This document shows positions 6,663 to 20,223 of a DNA stretch of 24,813 nt, in pieces. A program made the position numbers and the translations under genes. Each line of letters opens with the position of its first letter. Position 1 is the stretch's first letter. Origin of the DNA: a virus (lineage: Duplodnaviria; Heunggongvirae; Uroviricota; Caudoviricetes); IMG/VR virus record IMGVR_UViG_2529292921_000026. One strand, 5' to 3'. A model generated the notes under the pieces. That model had not been told where the DNA came from and did no database searches. It saw nothing but the letters and a program-made list of their open reading frames with translations.

Positions 6663-7316
6663 TCAAAAATCCATTATTACTTGTTTGACAAGACCAACTA
6701 TTCTGCAGTTCTCACCGCATTCAATAGTTTTATAGTTAGGATTTAGTGGGACGAGATACCTGTTCGGCCAGTCCTCAACAAATTTTTTGAGTGTCGCTTC
6801 TTGCCCACCATTGATATGGGCAACAACGATTTTTCCGTTAATACACTCTGTATCAATAATATCTGGCTCTACGATAACGATAGAACCTTCTGGTATCGAT
6901 GGTGAGCCGAGGGGATTGGTCATTGAATCACCACGGACCCGTAGTGCAAATGCCATTTCTGATACAAGGGCGGTAGTATAAACCCACTCTTCAGCATCTT
7001 CTTTCCTGACACCAGGCTCCGTCATTGTCCATGAACCCGCCTGAACCCACGAGATTAGGGGGACTTTTTTAACTGCGAATATTTCAGGTTTTAGATTTAT
7101 CTTTGGTTCAGGCGAGCCTTTTCCGCTAACAAGCCACAGAGGATCGCATTTAAGTGCGTTGGCTAGGGCTTGAAGGTTGGCTCCATTTGGTTGGTAGTCG
7201 TCCTTTTCCCATCCAGTAACCGTGACACGGTTCACACCAGTCAAATCAGCCAGTGCTTGTTGTGTCAGGTTCAGTTCTTTTCGCCTTTGGCGAATACGAT
7301 CACTCATGTTCATCAT
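6663..7316 (-). CDS. CI/C2-like prophage repressor (N-terminal HTH-XRE, C-terminal S24 LexA-like peptidase)
   Basis: N-terminus RIRQRRKELNLTQQALADLTGVNRVTVTGWE is an XRE-type HTH. The C-terminal domain carries the S24 self-cleavage serine motif (RVRGDSMTNP) and a catalytic Lys region. Overall it resembles P22 C2 as I recall it, and it sits between the two operator regions. Confidence 0.8.
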   Translation of the reverse strand: MMNMSDRIRQRRKELNLTQQALADLTGVNRVTVTGWEKDDYQPNGANLQALANALKCDPLWLVSGKGSPEPKINLKPEIFAVKKVPLISWVQAGSWTMTEPGVRKEDAEEWVYTTALVSEMAFALRVRGDSMTNPLGSPSIPEGSIVIVEPDIIDTECINGKIVVAHINGGQEATLKKFVEDWPNRYLVPLNPNYKTIECGENCRIVGLVKQVIMDF

Positions 7317-7636: not shown

Positions 7637-8221
7637 GTGGGTAAAGAACCTGAATGGAAAGTTGATAAACAACCAGCATGGCTGGTGGCAGCAATACGAA
7701 GAACGATTGCTGATTTACCTCATGGCTATGAGGAAGCAGCAGAAATTCTTGGTTTGTATAAATCTGATGATATCACCCCAGCAAAAGATCAATTGCATAA
7801 CAGACTGCGTAGCGGTGGGGATCAAATTTTTCCACTTGAGTGGGCCATGGTTTTACAGGATGCCAGTGGTACCAGGCATGTAACGGATGCGATAGCGCGT
7901 CGTAGTAATGGGGTGTTTGTGCCGCTGGTGGACATTGATGACATTGACAATGGTGACATTAATCAGCGGCTGATGGAGTCAATAGAATGGATTGGCAAGC
8001 ATTCCCAGTACTTACGCAAGGCAACTGCTGATGGAGTTATTGACCAGGCTGAGCGTGAGCAAATCGAAGAGAACAGCTACCAAGTAATGGCGAAGTGGCA
8101 GGAGCATTTAACACTGTTATTTCGTGTTTTTTGTGCACCGGAAAAGAGTAACGCCCGCGAGTGTGCAGCTCCGGGCGTCGTGGCGTCGATTGCTTCTGGT
8201 TGTGGAGAAACTAACGCATGA
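7637..8221 (+). CDS. phage CII-like regulatory protein (CP76-type), putative
   Basis: GTG start at 7637 has GAGG 8 nt upstream and follows cro by 27 bp. The 194-aa product has a central helix region. Family assignment is from position and weak recall only. Confidence 0.4.
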   Translation: MGKEPEWKVDKQPAWLVAAIRRTIADLPHGYEEAAEILGLYKSDDITPAKDQLHNRLRSGGDQIFPLEWAMVLQDASGTRHVTDAIARRSNGVFVPLVDIDDIDNGDINQRLMESIEWIGKHSQYLRKATADGVIDQAEREQIEENSYQVMAKWQEHLTLLFRVFCAPEKSNARECAAPGVVASIASGCGETNA

Positions 8222-8366
8222 ACAGTTTAACGGCAAATAACCGTTTGTCGCAACAGCTGGTGGTCAGCGTCGCTGAACACCTGTTGTTACGGCATGAATG
8301 CAGATTACCAAATCACCTGGCTGTAAGTAACCACAGAGAACTTTACCTGACTGTGGGGGGCGAGTT

Positions 8367-8546
8367 GTGCAGGAACTTAACCGCTGGTTTCGTGACGGAA
8401 GAGGGCTTTATGTCCATGTTATTCGTTGGGAGCCAGAAACACAGCGCGTTATCTATCTTCGCAAAGACTACCCGCATGAGTGCTTTAGTCCTTTGTGGAA
8501 ATTCAGGCGTGATTTTGTTGAGTGTGAAGGACCACCAGCACATTGA
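8367..8546 (+). CDS. candidate small protein (59 aa) in the cII-rha gap
   Basis: Frame-3 ORF with GTG at 8367 preceded by a GGGGGG run and a 6-nt spacer. Translation MQELNRWFRDGRGLYVHVIRWEPETQRVIYLRKDYPHECFSPLWKFRRDFVECEGPPAH has protein-like composition. It is below the ORF-track cutoff and competes with a frame-1 ORF. Confidence 0.3.
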   Translation: MQELNRWFRDGRGLYVHVIRWEPETQRVIYLRKDYPHECFSPLWKFRRDFVECEGPPAH

Positions 8547-8631
8547 TTCTGCCATTCCGGGACGTTACACTGTTCAGGCACCTTATAAAGCGGGTGCCGG
8601 GATTGGCGTCCTGAAATTGATTACTGAGCAT

Positions 8632-8653
8632 AACCGCGCTCATGCGGTTTTTT
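8632..8653 (+). terminator. weak terminator-like hairpin plus T-run (tR-like)
   Basis: AACCGC(8632-8637)-GCTCAT-GCGGTT(8644-8649) followed by TTTT (8650-8653), within the 600-bp stretch between the CII-like and Rha-like genes. Confidence 0.3.
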
Positions 8654-8823
8654 CGTGTCATGAGCATTGCTACGCCCAAATTATGGTGGGGCGTACAGGG
8701 CCGACTTCGGTCGGGCCGGGTTCGGTAGTCTCCGGTAACGCCAACCCTGTACGTCTCACCACCTCTGTGATTGGCGTCCCATGTGGTGAGTTTTCTGAAA
8801 AACTGACTACCGGGGCTGTCACC

Positions 8824-9381
8824 ATGACTACTCTCCCAACCCTCTCTCAACCTGAAATTGCCATCGTTGATGGTCAGGCTGTTACATCTTCTTTGGCTGT
8901 TGCTGACTTCTTCTCTAAACGTCATGACGATGTTCTGAAAAAGATCCGCATTTTGGATTGTTCTCCAGAGTTTTGTGCCCGCAATTTTGCGGAGACATCA
9001 ATTTTGGTACACCAGCCCAACGGCGGTACTCGCAAACTTCCTTGCTACCACATCACCCGTGACGGCTTCGCGTTCCTGGCAATGGGCTTCACTGGCAAAC
9101 GTGCTGCCCAGTTCAAAGAGGCATACATCAATGCCTTTAACCAGATGGAGAAACAGCTTTCAAAGCCCTCTGTACCGAGCGACGTTGCACATAACGCCAG
9201 CGTTCTCTATTCCTACATTTCATCAATTCATCAGGTCTGGTTGCAGCAGCTTTATCCCATGCTGGAAAAAGCTGAATCACCGCTGGCTGTAAGTCTGTAT
9301 GACCGAATTAACGATGCGGCATTTCTTGCCCGTCTTATTCATTCGTCGCTGAACTCTTCAGAGGTAAGGGGGCGCAAATGA
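8824..9381 (+). CDS. Rha-family phage regulatory protein
   Basis: N-terminal IAIVDGQAVTSSLAVADFFSKRHDDVLKKIR matches the Rha-domain signature (V-T-S-L-x-IAE-x-FGKRHxxVLRxI). ATG at 8824 has GGGG 8 nt upstream. The ORF track's 387-aa version adds a 200-aa upstream extension that I consider unlikely. Confidence 0.6.
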   Translation: MTTLPTLSQPEIAIVDGQAVTSSLAVADFFSKRHDDVLKKIRILDCSPEFCARNFAETSILVHQPNGGTRKLPCYHITRDGFAFLAMGFTGKRAAQFKEAYINAFNQMEKQLSKPSVPSDVAHNASVLYSYISSIHQVWLQQLYPMLEKAESPLAVSLYDRINDAAFLARLIHSSLNSSEVRGRK

Positions 9382-11082: not shown

Positions 11083-13537
<2,455 letters not shown>

Positions 13538-14092: not shown

Positions 14093-14824
14093 TCACCTGC
14101 CATCCAGAAGATGTCCCGACCAACGACTGCAACCATAATTACGTTGACCTGAACCGTCATGCAGCTTCGTTTCATTTTTCACGAGATAACGGGCTCTCTC
14201 CAGGGCTTTCTGCATCGCTTCTACATCACCACGCTTGATCCAGAGAACAGCGGCTTCACCAGACTTTTTGTCTGAAGCCTTCCTGGTATCAGAACATCCA
14301 CCCGACAAAGGCGTGTCATCGGAAGAAGGGCGAGCATCAGACGATGCTGGTTTACGGGAAGGCGTCCACCTGGAAAAATGGACTAGGCCATCGCCTTGCC
14401 AGGGCTCAAGATGCAGGGCGCTGCACCATGCCTCCTGGATCATCGTCGCCAGCGAAGACGGTTCGCTGAAATCCCCGAGCGAGCACCAGGTATCTTTGTT
14501 GAGCAGTAATATTACGTGATAATGTTTCCTGCCATACATCTTGCCGAACTCCCGGCACCAGAAATAACCCAAGCTGGTTGCATGCACACGCTGATTGGCA
14601 CATCTTTTTTTCCGCTGGTAAGCCTGAATTTTGGCTTTCAGGGATGCAAAAAAACGAGAAATTACCGCTGAATCCGGATCGGGATCCATGATGGTGACAG
14701 GCATATACTCAGGGAAACGTAAATCCTCCCGGATTAACGAGACGGCACGGTGCTGCGACAGAGCACTGTCGAGAAGGCTGTCAAAACGGGATAACCAGTA
14801 AGCATTGTGTATTGGTTGATTCAT
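14093..14824 (-). CDS. inovirus Gp2-like protein (YfjJ/YagK family of CP4-type islands)
   Basis: 243-aa ORF (MNQPIHNAYWLSRFDSLLDSALSQHRAVS...). The N-terminus and context match the yfjJ/yagK family as I recall it. The start faces the AT-rich region. Confidence 0.5.
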   Translation of the reverse strand: MNQPIHNAYWLSRFDSLLDSALSQHRAVSLIREDLRFPEYMPVTIMDPDPDSAVISRFFASLKAKIQAYQRKKRCANQRVHATSLGYFWCREFGKMYGRKHYHVILLLNKDTWCSLGDFSEPSSLATMIQEAWCSALHLEPWQGDGLVHFSRWTPSRKPASSDARPSSDDTPLSGGCSDTRKASDKKSGEAAVLWIKRGDVEAMQKALERARYLVKNETKLHDGSGQRNYGCSRWSGHLLDGR

Positions 14825-16315
14825 GATGAGAGATCTCCGTTGATTTGGATTGACTTCACATCATTAATCACCGCGGTAAAACTTTACGGCATCCGGCATT
14901 GAGCAATGCTACAACTCTCTGATTAAGAGTGATTGAAACGGAACAAACCATCCCGGAACGAAAAGATAATCCTACACGCAGGGTAAAAACACTCAAGAAC
15001 AGCGAATGGATTTAAAAACGACATGGACAACGAGAAAAGTCAGAAGGGAAAAGGATCCACAGAACATTCGAACAAAACACCAGAAACGCAACCAGAACGC
15101 TTCCTGGTAATGCAAATCAACAACAACCCCAAAACCTACAGCTTAATCACACAACTCAATCACGGATGCGAATGACACGTTTAAAACCTGTTTACAGATA
15201 ACGCCGTTACACGATCATCCCCATCAGAATCGATTTTCCCTTCCGGAAAGCGTTATGTTTCACTACGCACCATAAAAACGATTAACCATCGATAACGTAA
15301 ACTTCATCTGAATCAAAACTCCAAAACCGTTCATCACACTTTCGCAATGCAAGAAGAAACCTCATGACGAAAGCAATAACCTTACACGGAAAAGAAAAAC
15401 GTCAGGAATCGTTAATGCCTCAATCTGATTGTTATCAAAACATCCAGAAAGTCGTTTAACAGAATCGTCGTAAGTATATCGAAAAGAACGTCAGATTACT
15501 TCAGGAAAGTTCGGGTTGATTTAGCGTAAAGATACTTTTCTCATGCCAACGTCGAAACTCGAAATCTCAGGAAAGGTTAAACGTAACATCAGTAAAATTG
15601 AATAGCAGATTGATTGCTGAAGCAGAAAGGTTTTACAGCAGCATTAAACTGATTTAGTTAACGTAAAGATTTACTAAACTGGATGTGTATAGCAATGCTT
15701 AACGAAAACACTCGTAGAAGTGTTTATGAAAATACGTGTATAACACTTACTGAAATGCTTAGTTAAATACGTGTATATAGTATCATACCGACATTAGCAA
15801 CATTCTCAGACACTCATGCAGACTGAATGTTGATTACCCGTTTTCACATCAGGCATGGTTCTTTACTGACCAAAAAACAAACTGGTTTACTCTTGAATTA
15901 TTTTCTCTACCTCAGAAAACATGGTCTCAGGAATCTGCTATGGTTTCATAGTTTCTGTTGTTTTTTCATAAAAGTTATAAGTCATTGTCATAATCATACG
16001 ATAATCACTTTATGTTAGTTTTTACTGTCACACGCTACTGACTTTTTCAGTCATTGCCAGAAAGGGGCTCTTTTTACTTCCATTTCACCACTCAACAAAT
16101 GCAAAACTTGTCCAGTAAAGCGGACCACCTCTTGCTCACAAGCAACGAATCATCTCCAGGAACAGCCCTCAAACATTGCAGAAACAAAAACAACAAAACC
16201 CTCATTATCACTGATGTTCGGAAAATTTCCCGGAACAAAAAAACGAAAACAAAATGAGACGCATTATCATTAATGTAGTCAAAAAGACGTTATGGTGGCT
16301 TTCAGTTAAATGGTA
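14825..16315. other. 1.5-kb AT-rich, A-biased region without convincing ORFs, containing short direct repeats
   Basis: No ORF of 60 aa or more on either strand across 14825-15826, and only two low-complexity ORFs after that. Direct repeats TGATTTAG..CGTAAAGAT (about 15517 and 15650) and AAATACGTGTATA (15730 and 15766), and a hairpin AAACACT-CGTAGA-AGTGTTT (15705-15724). Confidence 0.4.
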
Positions 16316-17446
16316 CTATTTCTCATAAATCCACTTAACTTTTTTTACTGATTCATCCCAGATAACCACTTTATCAGTAAAAAATGAATTATATAGATTG
16401 ACGAGTTTTTCTGTTTCAGTTATTCCCAATGTATTATGTATCAGTTGTAGATATGCTTTTATCCAGATTTCTTTACCCTCCCTCCACTTATCTATAAAAC
16501 TTTCCAGCTTACTTAATCGTTGATTTATAAAAAACGAATCAATATCATGAAAAAGCTCAACAAGAAAACAGCACGAGACAATCTCAACAAAAAACAAATT
16601 CTCCTTAAAAGTATTATAAAACCTTATCAACACATAACGAAAAACACCTCCTGTTAATCTTTCCTGTTCATAAAACAACAAACCAAAAACAGGAGGAAAT
16701 CTTTTAACCACACCACTTTTAATCCAGTAAGGATGATGATTAGTCTTTACTGGCAGTGAATAAAAGAACAATTCGGTTTCTCTTTTCCCACCACAAACAG
16801 ACAAAACTGTCTTATAAAGACTTTTTGAATCATTATGTCCTGATACCCCAGACGAATTAGCAGAGTATTTTCTTTTTACTTTTTGCCTTAATGGAGCTGG
16901 AAGAATAATAAAACGGGATGGCAGATAACAATCGCTTTCAGAAGACCGGCATTCGCACACATGAAGATTTATATTTACATCCGGACAATTCAAAAACCAC
17001 ACAGAATAATTATCGCACCGTTTGCAATATGAAACCCATGAATAAATTGCATAAAGTTCAGAAAGCGCATCTAACTCTGCTTTTGAATTAAATGTGATAC
17101 CGTTTCTTCGAATTCTCGTTTCCAGCGTTCTCCATGCCGGGGTTTTCAGTATCTCACGAACTTTTTTATTAAGTTCAGCCAGAGATGGTCCCTGCTCCTG
17201 TTTATGTTTCGTCCTGCTGTTAATGATTTCTCTTTCTTTTACTAATTTCCTCTTTCTTTTTGGGCCTTCTACCTTTCTTGGCAATGCTTCATTTAATCTG
17301 TGAACAGGATTTTGCTCTCTTCTTTTTTTGAGCTCACAAAACCTCTCATAATGTTTTCTGCACAGTCTTTTCTCCACTGCCATTTTTACTGAGAAAACCT
17401 GATTGTTACAATTTTTTCTGACACATTTGTTTTTACGTCCGGTCAT
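16316..17446 (-). CDS. uncharacterised 376-aa protein: Lys/Arg-rich N-terminus with Cys clusters (zinc-ribbon-like) and an aromatic-rich C-terminal domain
   Basis: ATG at 17446 has AGGAG 8 nt upstream. N-terminus has C-x4-C ... C-x2-H-x4-C (KCVRKNCNN...LCRKHYERFC), with a second cluster YCKRCDNYSVWFLNCPDVNINLHVCEC. Codon usage is AT-rich and foreign-looking. No family recognised. Confidence 0.5.
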   Translation of the reverse strand: MTGRKNKCVRKNCNNQVFSVKMAVEKRLCRKHYERFCELKKRREQNPVHRLNEALPRKVEGPKRKRKLVKEREIINSRTKHKQEQGPSLAELNKKVREILKTPAWRTLETRIRRNGITFNSKAELDALSELYAIYSWVSYCKRCDNYSVWFLNCPDVNINLHVCECRSSESDCYLPSRFIILPAPLRQKVKRKYSANSSGVSGHNDSKSLYKTVLSVCGGKRETELFFYSLPVKTNHHPYWIKSGVVKRFPPVFGLLFYEQERLTGGVFRYVLIRFYNTFKENLFFVEIVSCCFLVELFHDIDSFFINQRLSKLESFIDKWREGKEIWIKAYLQLIHNTLGITETEKLVNLYNSFFTDKVVIWDESVKKVKWIYEK

Positions 17447-17637
17447 CCTCTCATCTCCTGAAACAGCAGTATGTCATTAGTTCCCGTTCTGAAAAACTGA
17501 CGCCATACTCCATTACACTTTAACAATAATGTCCGTAATTCAGACATTCCATCATTTTTCACGCCCATATTACCTGAATGATAAACCGGATTAGTGTGAT
17601 CCGGTTCAGTGAAATCAACAGGATACCGGTATGTCAT
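17443..17637 (-). CDS. doubtful small ORF (64 aa) upstream of and coupled to the 376-aa gene
   Basis: ATG at 17637-17635 overlaps the GTPase start codon region on the opposite strand, and the stop overlaps the 376-aa start (ATGA). This stretch may instead be a divergent promoter region. Confidence 0.2.
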   Translation of the reverse strand: MTYRYPVDFTEPDHTNPVYHSGNMGVKNDGMSELRTLLLKCNGVWRQFFRTGTNDILLFQEMRG

Positions 17638-18515
17638 TCAGCCATTCTTCCCTCTCCGCACAAGTGAAATCATATCTGACGTTTCTTCCTGAAGAAATTC
17701 GTCAGAAAATTCTTGAACATCTCCACAGCGTTATTCATTACGAACCCGTGATTGGCATTATGGGTAAATCCGGCACCGGCAAAAGTAGCCTGTGTAATGC
17801 TATTTTTCAGTCCCATATCTGTGCCACGCATCCCCTGAACGGCTGCACCCGCCAGGCTCATCGTCTTACCCTGCAGATCGGTGAACGCAGAATGACGCTG
17901 GTCGATCTGCCCGGCATTGGAGAGACGCCGCAACATGATCAGGAATACCGGGCGCTTTACCGTCAGTTACTGCCGGAAGTGGATTTGATTATCTGGATCC
18001 TGCGGGCAGATGAACGCGCGTATGCCGCCGACATTACCATGCATCAGTTTTTACTGAATGAAGGCGCAGATCCCTCGCGTTTTCTGTTTGTTCTCAGCCA
18101 TGCCGATCGCGTGTTTCCTGCTGAAGAATGGAATGCCACAGAAAAATGCCCGTCCCGTCAGCAGGAACTCTCACTGGCGACGGTGACAGCCCGGGTGGCA
18201 ACCCTGTTCCCTTCATCATTTCCGGTACTCTCCGTTGCTGCACCTGTCGGCTGGAACCTTCCGGCGTTTGTGTCGCTGATGATCCACGCACTGCCACCAC
18301 AGGCAACCAGCGCGGTGTATTCACATATCCGGGGAGAAAACCGCTCTGAACAGGCCCAGAAACACGCACAACAGACTTTTGGTGAAACCATCGGGAAAAG
18401 TTTTGACGTCGCCGTTGCCCGTTTCAGTTTTCCGGCCTGGATGTTACAGCTTCTGCGTAAAGCCCGGGACCGCATTATCCACCTGCTGATCACACTGTGG
18501 GAGCGTCTGTTCTGA
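17631..18515 (+). CDS. YeeP/YfjP/YkfA-family GTPase (50S ribosome-binding GTPase-like)
   Basis: P-loop GIMGKSGTGKSS (G1) and DLPG (G3) are present. Overall the sequence matches the CP4-island GTPase family as I recall it. Confidence 0.8.
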   Translation: MSFSHSSLSAQVKSYLTFLPEEIRQKILEHLHSVIHYEPVIGIMGKSGTGKSSLCNAIFQSHICATHPLNGCTRQAHRLTLQIGERRMTLVDLPGIGETPQHDQEYRALYRQLLPEVDLIIWILRADERAYAADITMHQFLLNEGADPSRFLFVLSHADRVFPAEEWNATEKCPSRQQELSLATVTARVATLFPSSFPVLSVAAPVGWNLPAFVSLMIHALPPQATSAVYSHIRGENRSEQAQKHAQQTFGETIGKSFDVAVARFSFPAWMLQLLRKARDRIIHLLITLWERLF

Positions 18516-18717: not shown

Positions 18718-19398
18718 ATGTCTGATAATCGTTCCCGGCATGATCGCCTGGCGGTTCGCTTATCACTCATTATCAGCCGACTGATGGCCGGAGAATCTCT
18801 GTCACTAAAAACACTGTCAGATGAATTTGGCGTTACAGAACGTACTTTACAGCGCGATTTTCATCAGCGTCTGGTTCACCTGGATTTAGAGTACAGAAAT
18901 GGCAGGTACAGCCTCAGACGACAGAGCAGCCCAGGTGCGATCCCTGAAATGCTTTCTTTTATACAGAATACCGGGATCGCACGGATACTTCCGCTCCGGA
19001 ACGGACGACTGATAACCTGTCTTACCGACAACCAGGAGCCCTCTCCCTGCCTTATCTGGCTACCGGCGCCGGATATCACTGCAACGTTCCCCGAGTGTTT
19101 CTCGCAACTCATCCTGGCAATAAGACAGTGTATCCACATCTCTCTGATGACTGAGCGATGGTATCCGTCACTGGAGCCCTGCCGGCTCATTTATTACAGC
19201 GGTAGCTGGTATCTGATCGCGTTACAGAAGGGAAAACTGCAGGTCTTTCCTCTGGCAGATATCAAATCAGTCAGCCTGACATCAGAACGGTTTGAACGGA
19301 GAGGCCACATCCACAGTCTGGTCGCTGAAGAGCGTTTTATCTCCGCCCTGCCACATTTCTCTTTCATCCATAAACTTATCAACACCTTTAACCTGTGA
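18718..19398 (+). CDS. WYL-domain transcriptional regulator (YfjR-like, HTH plus WYL)
   Basis: N-terminal HTH (SLKTLSDEFGVTERTLQRDF) and a WYL signature (YYSGSWYLIA). ATG at 18718 with GGAG upstream. Confidence 0.7.
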   Translation: MSDNRSRHDRLAVRLSLIISRLMAGESLSLKTLSDEFGVTERTLQRDFHQRLVHLDLEYRNGRYSLRRQSSPGAIPEMLSFIQNTGIARILPLRNGRLITCLTDNQEPSPCLIWLPAPDITATFPECFSQLILAIRQCIHISLMTERWYPSLEPCRLIYYSGSWYLIALQKGKLQVFPLADIKSVSLTSERFERRGHIHSLVAEERFISALPHFSFIHKLINTFNL

Positions 19399-19545
19399 TC
19401 GCCGGCCTGCCAAAGCCGTCCCGACAGGTATGGAGACAATATGTTGAACAGAAAACTAAATATACGGCTACGTCATTCCCTGAACAGTTACTGCATACCT
19501 TCCATCATTATCAATAACACCGTACGTTCATTTCAGAGGTCAGTC

Positions 19546-20223
19546 ATGAATACCAGAGCTCTTTTTCCCCTGCTGTTCACTGTGGCATCATTCTCCGCCT
19601 CCGCCGGCAACTGGGCTGTCAAAAACGGCTGGTGTCAGACCATGACGGAAGATGGTCAGGCGCTGGTAATGCTGAAAAATGGCACGACTGGTATTACCGG
19701 CCTGATGCAGGGATGCCCGAATGGCGTACAGACGCTCCTGGGCAGCCGTATCAGTATTAACGGTAACCTGATCCCCACATCACAAATGTGTAATCAGCAG
19801 ACGGGATTCAGGGCTGTTGAGGTGGAAATCGGACAGGCGCCGGAAATGGTCAAAAAAGCCGTTCACTCCATAGCAGAGCGTGATGTGTCCGTTTTACAGG
19901 CATTTGGTGTACGAATGGAATTCACCCGCGGTGATATGCTGAAGGTCTGTCCGAAATTTGTCACATCACTTGCCGGTTTTTCCCCGAAACAGACGACCAC
20001 TATTAATAAAGATTCCGTCCTGCAGGCTGCCCGGCAGGCATACGCCCGGGAATATGACGAGGAAACAACAGAAACCGCTGATTTTGGCTCTTACGAAGTA
20101 AAAGGCAATAAGGTTGAGTTTGAAGTATTCAATCCTGAAGACCGTGCGTACGACAAAGTGACCGTCACGGTTGGTGCTGACGGTAATGCCACCGGCGCCA
20201 GCGTTGAATTTATCGGAAAATAG
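19546..20223 (+). CDS. secreted protein with signal peptide, unknown function
   Basis: ATG at 19546 has AGAGG 6 nt upstream. N-terminus [23 protein letters not shown] is a Sec signal peptide. The ORF track's upstream extension lacks an RBS. Confidence 0.5.

Follow-up and report, generated by a model that had tools for sequence, protein, structure and literature searches.

What does a strongly AT-rich gene of no recognised family contribute to the CP4-57-like island in which it lies? The question is raised by IMG/VR virus record IMGVR_UViG_2529292921_000026 (Caudoviricetes), a stretch of 24,813 nucleotides analysed here as a whole and referred to as the window, in which a gene for a 376-residue protein stands between an inovirus-Gp2/YagK-YfjJ gene and a YfjP/YeeP-type GTPase gene. 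Islands resembling CP4-57, CP4-44 and CP4-6 are among the commonest accessory elements of Escherichia coli. A sequence-only reading of the window had named both neighbours and the island type, which the downstream gene order bears out, and had proposed that the gene occupies a variable cargo slot and may encode a new defence or abortive-infection effector. We found that the orphan gene is widespread and occupies a sharply polymorphic locus whose variants appear to share a promoter; its product apparently has a new fold. The gene is a polymorphic part of the island backbone and exists as three allelic classes of ancient origin, all of them subject to purifying selection. A role as a defence effector is unproven, and we tentatively prefer to read the protein as a regulator or sensor of the island.

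A polymorphic gene in a replaceable cassette

The 376-residue open reading frame (ORF) lies where it had been reported, on the minus strand (Table 1), with a GGAG 8 nt upstream of its ATG. The longer span given for it, 16316-17637, was right for the ORF as far as 17446, but the remainder, 17447-17637, is 5' leader and promoter together with a spurious 64-residue ORF. We considered this upstream ORF as a partner gene and rejected it, as it starts upstream of a conserved -10 element and overlaps both the GTPase start and the promoter. It had no family match or homologue in scans of Pfam, PADLOC, NCBIfam and PHROGs, and nothing corresponds to it in homologous loci, whose entire intergenic region measures about 100 bp. 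The AT-richness of the 376-residue ORF was borne out: its G+C content is 34.5% (28.6% at third codon positions), compared with 48.4% for the whole window and 52.9% for the adjacent GTPase gene.

The ORF is present in 463 of 5,426 complete E. coli genomes, O157:H7 and ST131 strains among them. The copies are 96-100% identical in all but one of these genomes, and in 459 of the 463 they are intact (coverage of at least 80%). Pairwise ratios of nonsynonymous to synonymous substitution rates (dN/dS, Nei-Gojobori) among E. coli and among Klebsiella alleles were 0.17-0.37, with 0.09-0.33 for the GTPase gene; by segment, the lowest value was that of the N-terminal zinc module described below (0.08), and none exceeded 1. 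Because the ORF is intact in nearly all carriers, has full-length homologues (28-37% identical) in four other genera and shows these low ratios, it is not a chance ORF but a genuine gene, kept under purifying selection. Each of the findings that the sequence-only reading had named as fatal to its proposal failed to appear, in that Pfam and NCBIfam gave no transposase or housekeeping domain, the intact copies and dN/dS below 0.4 are not those of a decayed pseudogene, and the ORF is conserved across related islands. A functionless or decaying passenger in AT-rich DNA silenced by H-NS would suit the base composition, the lack of a known domain and the label "hypothetical protein" in every annotation. 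Intact copies in 459 of 463 genomes, the dN/dS values, full-length homologues that keep the invariant motifs at 28-37% identity, and a confident fold prediction (predicted template modelling score, pTM, 0.82) all speak against this explanation, which we consider very improbable.

To sample E. coli islands, we used the conserved left flank and the GTPase gene as entry points. At six independent loci with other cassettes, blastn similarity to the window stopped and resumed within the same few nucleotides (Table 1), leaving a replaceable cassette in which the gene is accompanied by its own leader and tail. Every cassette type has a tail of at least 390 bp, with no cross-type similarity between tails; that of type A, the type in the window, contains short direct repeats in weak two-copy families. 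The right flank, which includes the GTPase gene, is 94-98% identical whatever the cassette type. The left flank, which holds several short repeated motifs, is 71-91% identical across types and occurs in 1,878 of the 5,426 genomes, far more than carry the 376-residue gene. The cassette gene is the only sharply polymorphic gene in a backbone segment otherwise 94-98% conserved.

Three cassette types were recognised in E. coli, type A in 463, type B in 976 and type C in 742 of the 5,426 genomes, with 2,406 places in total. The GTPase clade numbers 1,957 records with a best match of at least 80% identity, roughly the number of cassette places when the totals are compared. About 11% of carrier genomes have the same cassette type twice. 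Type B encodes a 407-residue protein with the zinc module and a C-terminal LYNS(F/C)F motif, and type C a protein of 314-320 residues without the module, together with a convergent partner of 262-284 residues (L015 8981-9835, L017 8710-9519 and L018 1660-2448, all on the plus strand). In hhalign comparisons with the family profile, type B matched over its full length (probability 99.5%, E 8e-23) and type C over 194 core columns (95.9%, E 5e-9), while unrelated proteins of the same loci, taken as negative controls, scored 0.08-0.4%. By these profile comparisons, types A, B and C are three remotely homologous, very old versions of one family. The type C partner is unrelated to it (0.08%), and the C-termini of all three partner variants gave sub-threshold matches to RHH_1 and RepB-RCR_reg (E 0.03-0.15). 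Three other candidates for relatives were rejected, namely YfjI, which had given weak tblastn matches (hhalign probability 0.4%), the type C partner and a neighbouring protein in the island of strain A3 (0.08-0.2%).

The idea of a variable slot therefore held only in part. The interval is variable and has sharp edges, at 15904 and 17555, but its occupants are homologues rather than unrelated cargo. The gene divergent from the GTPase gene was a family member in seven of seven sampled E. coli loci as well as in every locus from Klebsiella, Salmonella, Citrobacter and Atlantibacter, and since homologues fill the position in every sampled locus, we regard the gene as a polymorphic backbone gene and not as a hotspot payload. 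The GTPase gene was the constant neighbour, divergent from every family member located across a gap of 95-185 bp; on the other side stood a Gp2/YfjJ gene (HUH Rep-like), with AlpA present or not. Identity to the window's proteins falls along homologous loci from about 73% for DUF932 through about 51% for the GTPase to about 30% for the 376-residue protein, which indicates a gene inherited with the backbone but diverging much faster.

No family member was found at this position in three more distant islands, K-12 CP4-57, the Nissle island and the island of strain A3 (L024). K-12 CP4-57 carries abpAB, yfjM and rnlAB there, so the statement that its yfjJ-yfjP interval holds abpAB (yfjKL) and rnlAB was correct. 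K-12 YfjM (L022 12514-12777, 86 residues as translated) matches Pfam GmrSD_C (E 6e-6), which suggests a gene fragment, the C-terminal part of a GmrSD restriction endonuclease domain, beside rnlAB.

A conserved small gene 3' of the ORF (15990-16320, minus strand) was also considered and rejected, as T-run and indel changes break its frame between alleles. It is annotated as 84 residues in one genome (L019 1886-2140) and interrupted in the window, in O157:H7 and in locus L025, and is probably non-coding.

Between the cassette and the GTPase gene lies a 76-bp backbone segment common to all types. It contains the GTPase ribosome-binding site and, on the minus strand at 17567-17572, a -10-like TAATAT that is invariant in the alignment of Klebsiella, Salmonella, Citrobacter and Enterobacteriaceae sequences; a generic promoter scan did not list this site. 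A perfect 8-bp inverted repeat, AACCGGAT-N7-ATCCGGTT, occupies 17584-17606, occurs once in the window compared with 0.08 expected by chance, and has no further copies there. This palindrome is nested in a 15-nt inverted repeat (17575-17589 and 17626-17640) that spans the GTPase start codon. These signals suggest that the cassette starts close to where transcription does, and that one backbone promoter, common to all types, drives it. The segment is operator-like, and the regulator with WYL and helix-turn-helix (HTH) domains encoded at 18718-19398 is a candidate binder of the palindrome. Ten nucleotides around the GTPase start codon (GTATGTCATT, 17629-17638) recur in the type A leader at 17469-17478, possibly as a trace left by the recombination event that brought in the cassette.

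An orphan protein with a zinc module

The protein has three regions, a zinc module with Cys, Cys, Cys and His ligands (CCCH, residues 1-54), a disordered basic linker (55-87) and a core (88-376). The module follows the pattern C8-x4-C13-x15-C29-x2-H32, and these four residues are invariant in nine module copies from three lineages, including the duplicated copy of the Salmonella members (P0020 and P0043), which carry two modules. R27, L28 and Y33 are also invariant in the alignments, and K7, R10 and R27 are its conserved basic residues. The module is the most constrained part of the protein and is basic in composition (isoelectric point, pI, 10.3), and AlphaFold2 predicted it as two short strands followed by helices (predicted local distance difference test, pLDDT, 88-90). 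Its four ligands fall in two knuckles, as in zinc ribbons and treble clefs, making it a putative metal- and nucleic-acid-binding element.

The sequence-only reading had recognised the zinc-ribbon-like N-terminus, which is indeed conserved, but its motif, C-x4-C ... C-x2-H-x4-C, included one cysteine too many. The last cysteine, C37, is lost in type B and in the duplicated modules, so that the ligand set is reduced to CCCH. A proposed second cysteine cluster (C141, C144, C154, C164, C166 and C173) is not conserved, although C141 is kept within type A. The basic linker was confirmed (pI 11.1, predicted disordered) and is variable in sequence across homologues, and the aromatic-rich C-terminal part likewise (18% Phe, Trp and Tyr, helical).

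A first AlphaFold2 model, of the full protein from 12 sequences, was mediocre (pLDDT 68). A second, of residues 85-376 from 24 sequences spanning all types, reached a pLDDT of 81.5 and gave the pTM quoted above; in it the core is a single compact domain, mostly helical, with two beta-hairpins. Types A, B and C have eight invariant residues in common (W105, R114, Y135, P183, Y211, P252, L256 and E288), a set that is not catalytic-looking. No nuclease, NTPase, TIR, SIR2, protease or membrane-effector features were found, and few polar residues are invariant. All three types are basic (pI 9.3-9.8).

The admission that the protein could not be placed in any family was upheld by searches of Pfam, NCBIfam, PHROGs, PADLOC and PDB sequences. 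Pfam and NCBIfam contained no family for it, and PHROGs gave one sub-threshold match (E 0.097). When all 12 alignment members and their N-terminal modules were scanned separately, isolated matches with E above 0.01 were all that appeared. No model in PADLOC-DB v2, which covers systems to 2023, matched types A, B or C, the type C partner, or the Klebsiella and Salmonella members. PDB sequence searches with a single sequence and two profiles found nothing for the protein or the zinc module, and a BFVD search gave no match either. The core thus has no sequence relative outside the family in these searches, and as modelled it is apparently a new fold.

An exhaustive HMMER scan of 1.84 billion representative proteins yielded 19 matches, the full-length ones 28-36% identical. 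Index searches and 185,579 species genomes placed the homologues in Escherichia, Salmonella, Klebsiella, Citrobacter, Atlantibacter and one Enterobacteriaceae isolate, a distribution restricted to Enterobacteriaceae. One odd match, a 5-kb contig labelled as an Oliverpabstia metagenome-assembled genome and 96% identical to the E. coli gene, was taken as a misbinned E. coli contig. By tblastn, the family had no homologue in 50,697 phage records and one match in 72,556 plasmid records. In the literature on WP_001339473.1, on yfjP, yeeP and ykfA, and on CP4 islands, we found no description of the family.

Regulation, defence or maintenance

With a probability that we put at roughly 0.3, the gene is the type A allele of a polymorphic, non-enzymatic nucleic-acid-binding protein that regulates the island or senses for it, much as Stl does in the phage-inducible chromosomal islands. 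Nucleic-acid binding, the regulatory or sensory role and the nature of the ligand are what we infer from the features described. A constrained zinc module, a basic linker, a basic core that does not look catalytic and the RHH-like partner of type C argue for a binding or specificity protein rather than an enzyme. Purifying selection within types, with no region above a dN/dS of 1, fits old, balanced specificity classes, and polymorphic loci of this kind usually encode specificity, whether of immunity, sensing or defence range. One lineage of CP4-57-like integrative islands would carry the family as a constant component, transcribed from the backbone promoter back-to-back with the operon that runs from the GTPase gene to CbtA. 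The CCCH module and the flexible linker would tether the protein to DNA or RNA, and the fast-diverging helical core would be the specificity part, recognising a variable partner. Such a Stl-like module might couple an external cue, for example a protein from an infecting or helper phage or a related island in the same cell, to the expression or activity of the island.

Several observations weigh against this regulator or sensor. The zinc module matches no characterised DNA-binding family. The segment with the promoter and palindrome is common to all three types, which excludes a type-specific operator there, and it is unlikely that a zinc module in types A and B and an RHH partner in type C read one and the same site. 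The WYL-HTH regulator two genes away may be the reader of the palindrome. The right flank is 94-98% identical in all types, so that nothing in E. coli points to co-evolution with the GTPase, and the presence of one type twice in about 11% of carriers argues against strict incompatibility. A more specific form of the regulator or sensor, which we find distinctly doubtful, is that the types are specificity alleles of a new-fold switch by which CP4-57-like islands sense phages or helpers. The polymorphic core, joined to a zinc module or partnered by an RHH protein, would bind different phage proteins, and binding would turn on the operon of GTPase, antirestriction and CbtA genes, or the excision and replication of the island. 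The models overlap, in that a switch of this kind, by sensing phages, would belong to regulation and defence alike.

A stand-alone anti-phage or abortive-infection protein, as the sequence-only reading had it, is unlikely but deserves weight. In that case the core would sense or target phage components, the zinc module would bind phage nucleic acid and the alleles would represent phage specificities, and the protein may work with the neighbouring GTPase and the WYL regulator. A defence role would suit an AT-rich gene that is confined to mobile elements and whose deeply split allelic types occupy a cassette with sharp boundaries; abpAB and rnlAB occupy the K-12 interval, the C-terminus of the GTPase weakly matches the PADLOC LeoBC model (E 3e-6) with the WYL regulator gene next to it, and these islands are reported to carry defence payloads and to be possible satellites (PMC12458937). 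However, none of the three types or the variants from other genera matches a PADLOC model, the effector features listed above are absent and few invariant residues are polar, positive selection within types is absent, and the alternative occupants are homologues, unlike typical hotspots with their unrelated systems. The gene of a satellite-like island might instead encode a zinc-finger factor of helper exploitation or anti-defence, one that, as the island transfers or establishes itself, targets a helper phage or the defences of the host; its role would be analogous to that of the Ogr/Delta transactivators of P2 and P4 or of the adjacent antirestriction genes. The island encodes the HUH Rep-like Gp2/YfjJ protein and related copies encode AlpA, antirestriction and RadC genes lie in the adjacent operon, the tandem zinc module of the Salmonella members recalls Delta, and allelic types could match different helpers. 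We nevertheless think such a factor improbable: there is no match to Ogr_Delta or any other Pfam family, the cysteines are spaced differently, Ogr is four to five times smaller than the protein, the 50,697 phage records hold no homologue, and no helper phage is known for these islands. A determinant of replication, maintenance or incompatibility, acting with Gp2/YfjJ on the 1.1-kb left flank or on the type-specific tail, has poorer odds still. The cassette does lie between the conserved non-coding flank and the operon, each type brings its own tail (with short direct repeats in type A), and several such islands often share one E. coli genome, where different allelic types would let related islands coexist; against this stand the weakness of the two-copy repeats, the genomes with one type twice, and the lack of similarity to known Rep, Par or copy-control proteins.

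Island backbone and known systems

The features around the cassette are collected in Table 1. Downstream of the cassette gene follow the GTPase, WYL-HTH, DUF905, DUF932, antirestriction, RadC, DUF987, CbeA/CbtA, DUF5983, DUF957 and DUF4942 genes. Regulators of the WYL-HTH kind often accompany defence systems, and this one matches the PADLOC WYL model (E 2.6e-18) and Pfam WYL and HTH_11. The conserved hypothetical gene after it (19441-20223) has no Pfam match and is 225 residues long in RefSeq, with a start further downstream; its translation contains a stretch resembling a signal peptide. The left flank may serve as an origin or a long leader, or may encode a non-coding RNA; at the gathering threshold, Rfam gave no match within or close to the cassette. 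The island remnant is abutted by an IS21-family element (istA and istB, IS100-like, 11320-13121), and similarity to the island of strain 361 starts at 13188, so that the integrase and AlpA side of the island is absent from the window. A lambdoid prophage early region is a separate element, with isrK (59 bits) and C4 antisense RNA (82 bits) matched in Rfam at 8578-8766, a CI-like S24 repressor gene (6663-7316), a CII-like gene (7637-8221) and a Rha/Ash gene (8218-9381).

Table 1. Positions of the cassette, its gene and the adjoining backbone features in the window.
Feature	Positions	Strand	Basis or remark
Type A cassette gene, 376 residues	16316-17446	minus	ORF call; RefSeq WP_001339473.1 "hypothetical protein" (identical gene)
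N-terminal zinc module, codons 1-54	17285-17446	minus	Invariant columns; dN/dS 0.08; pLDDT 88-90
Replaceable 1.65-kb cassette, 35.5% G+C	15905-17554		blastn breakpoints 15903-15905 and 17554-17556
Type-specific 3' tail	15905-16315		No similarity to the tails of other types
Type-specific 5' leader	17447-17554		Similarity to type B and C islands breaks at 17555
Backbone intergenic segment, 76 bp	17555-17630		Common to all types (94-98% identical)
64-residue ORF, judged spurious	17443-17637	minus	Overlaps GTPase start and promoter segment; no homologues
YfjP/YeeP-type GTPase gene, divergent	17631-18515	plus	Pfam MMR_HSR1 (E 3e-15), Dynamin_N
Left backbone flank, about 1.1 kb	14825-15904		No annotated gene; upstream of the Gp2/YfjJ gene
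Inovirus-Gp2/YagK-YfjJ gene	14093-14824		Pfam E 7e-34

A preprint describes such elements as islands with an integrase, an excisionase and an HUH endonuclease that carry a "moron" module of RadC, ArdB and CbtA, and proposes that they may be defence-carrying phage satellites; the 376-residue gene is not described in it (PMC12458937). As the core has no relatives in sequence or in the PDB, its function would define a new family, and the swapping of cassette types offers a clean experimental design. If the sensing switch were true, it would provide a functional handle on these very common "cryptic prophage" islands and on the question of their being phage satellites.

Among known systems, the lead offered by phage HNH endonucleases is a likeness in the zinc module, whose pattern presumably resembles the RLCxxHYxRF signature of the N-terminal zinc modules (Cys-x(2-4)-Cys ... 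Leu-Cys-x2-His-Tyr-x-Arg) of some of these enzymes; we take it as a lead only, since the protein differs from them in lacking an HNH domain and no Pfam or PDB match to such a module was found. With Ogr and Delta of P2 and P4 the protein shares a small cysteine-based zinc module, a home in a phage-related integrative element and, in some members, tandem duplication, Delta being a duplicated Ogr. It differs from them in its C-x4-C-x15-C-x2-H spacing, in the absence of a Pfam Ogr_Delta match and in the 290-residue core attached to the module. The locus also resembles the hotspots of P2/P4-like elements and of K-12 CP4-57 (AbpAB, RnlAB), being a sharply bounded variable segment in a conserved backbone, in the yfjJ-yfjP interval, but its occupants belong to one family read from a backbone promoter and only the type C partner is unrelated.

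The comparison that bears on the regulator or sensor is with Stl of the Staphylococcus aureus pathogenicity islands (SaPI) and other phage-inducible chromosomal islands (PICI). Stl is encoded by the island, divergently from the main operon across a short intergenic region, and it combines an N-terminal nucleic-acid-binding part with a very divergent C-terminus, in many barely related types at the same position. It differs from the family described here in having an HTH, which was not detected in the 376-residue protein or in any alignment member, and the operator-like palindrome here lies in a segment common to all types instead of being type-specific; type C, moreover, is without the zinc module. 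Like Stl, the family gene diverges from the operon of its island and occurs as divergent types at one position.

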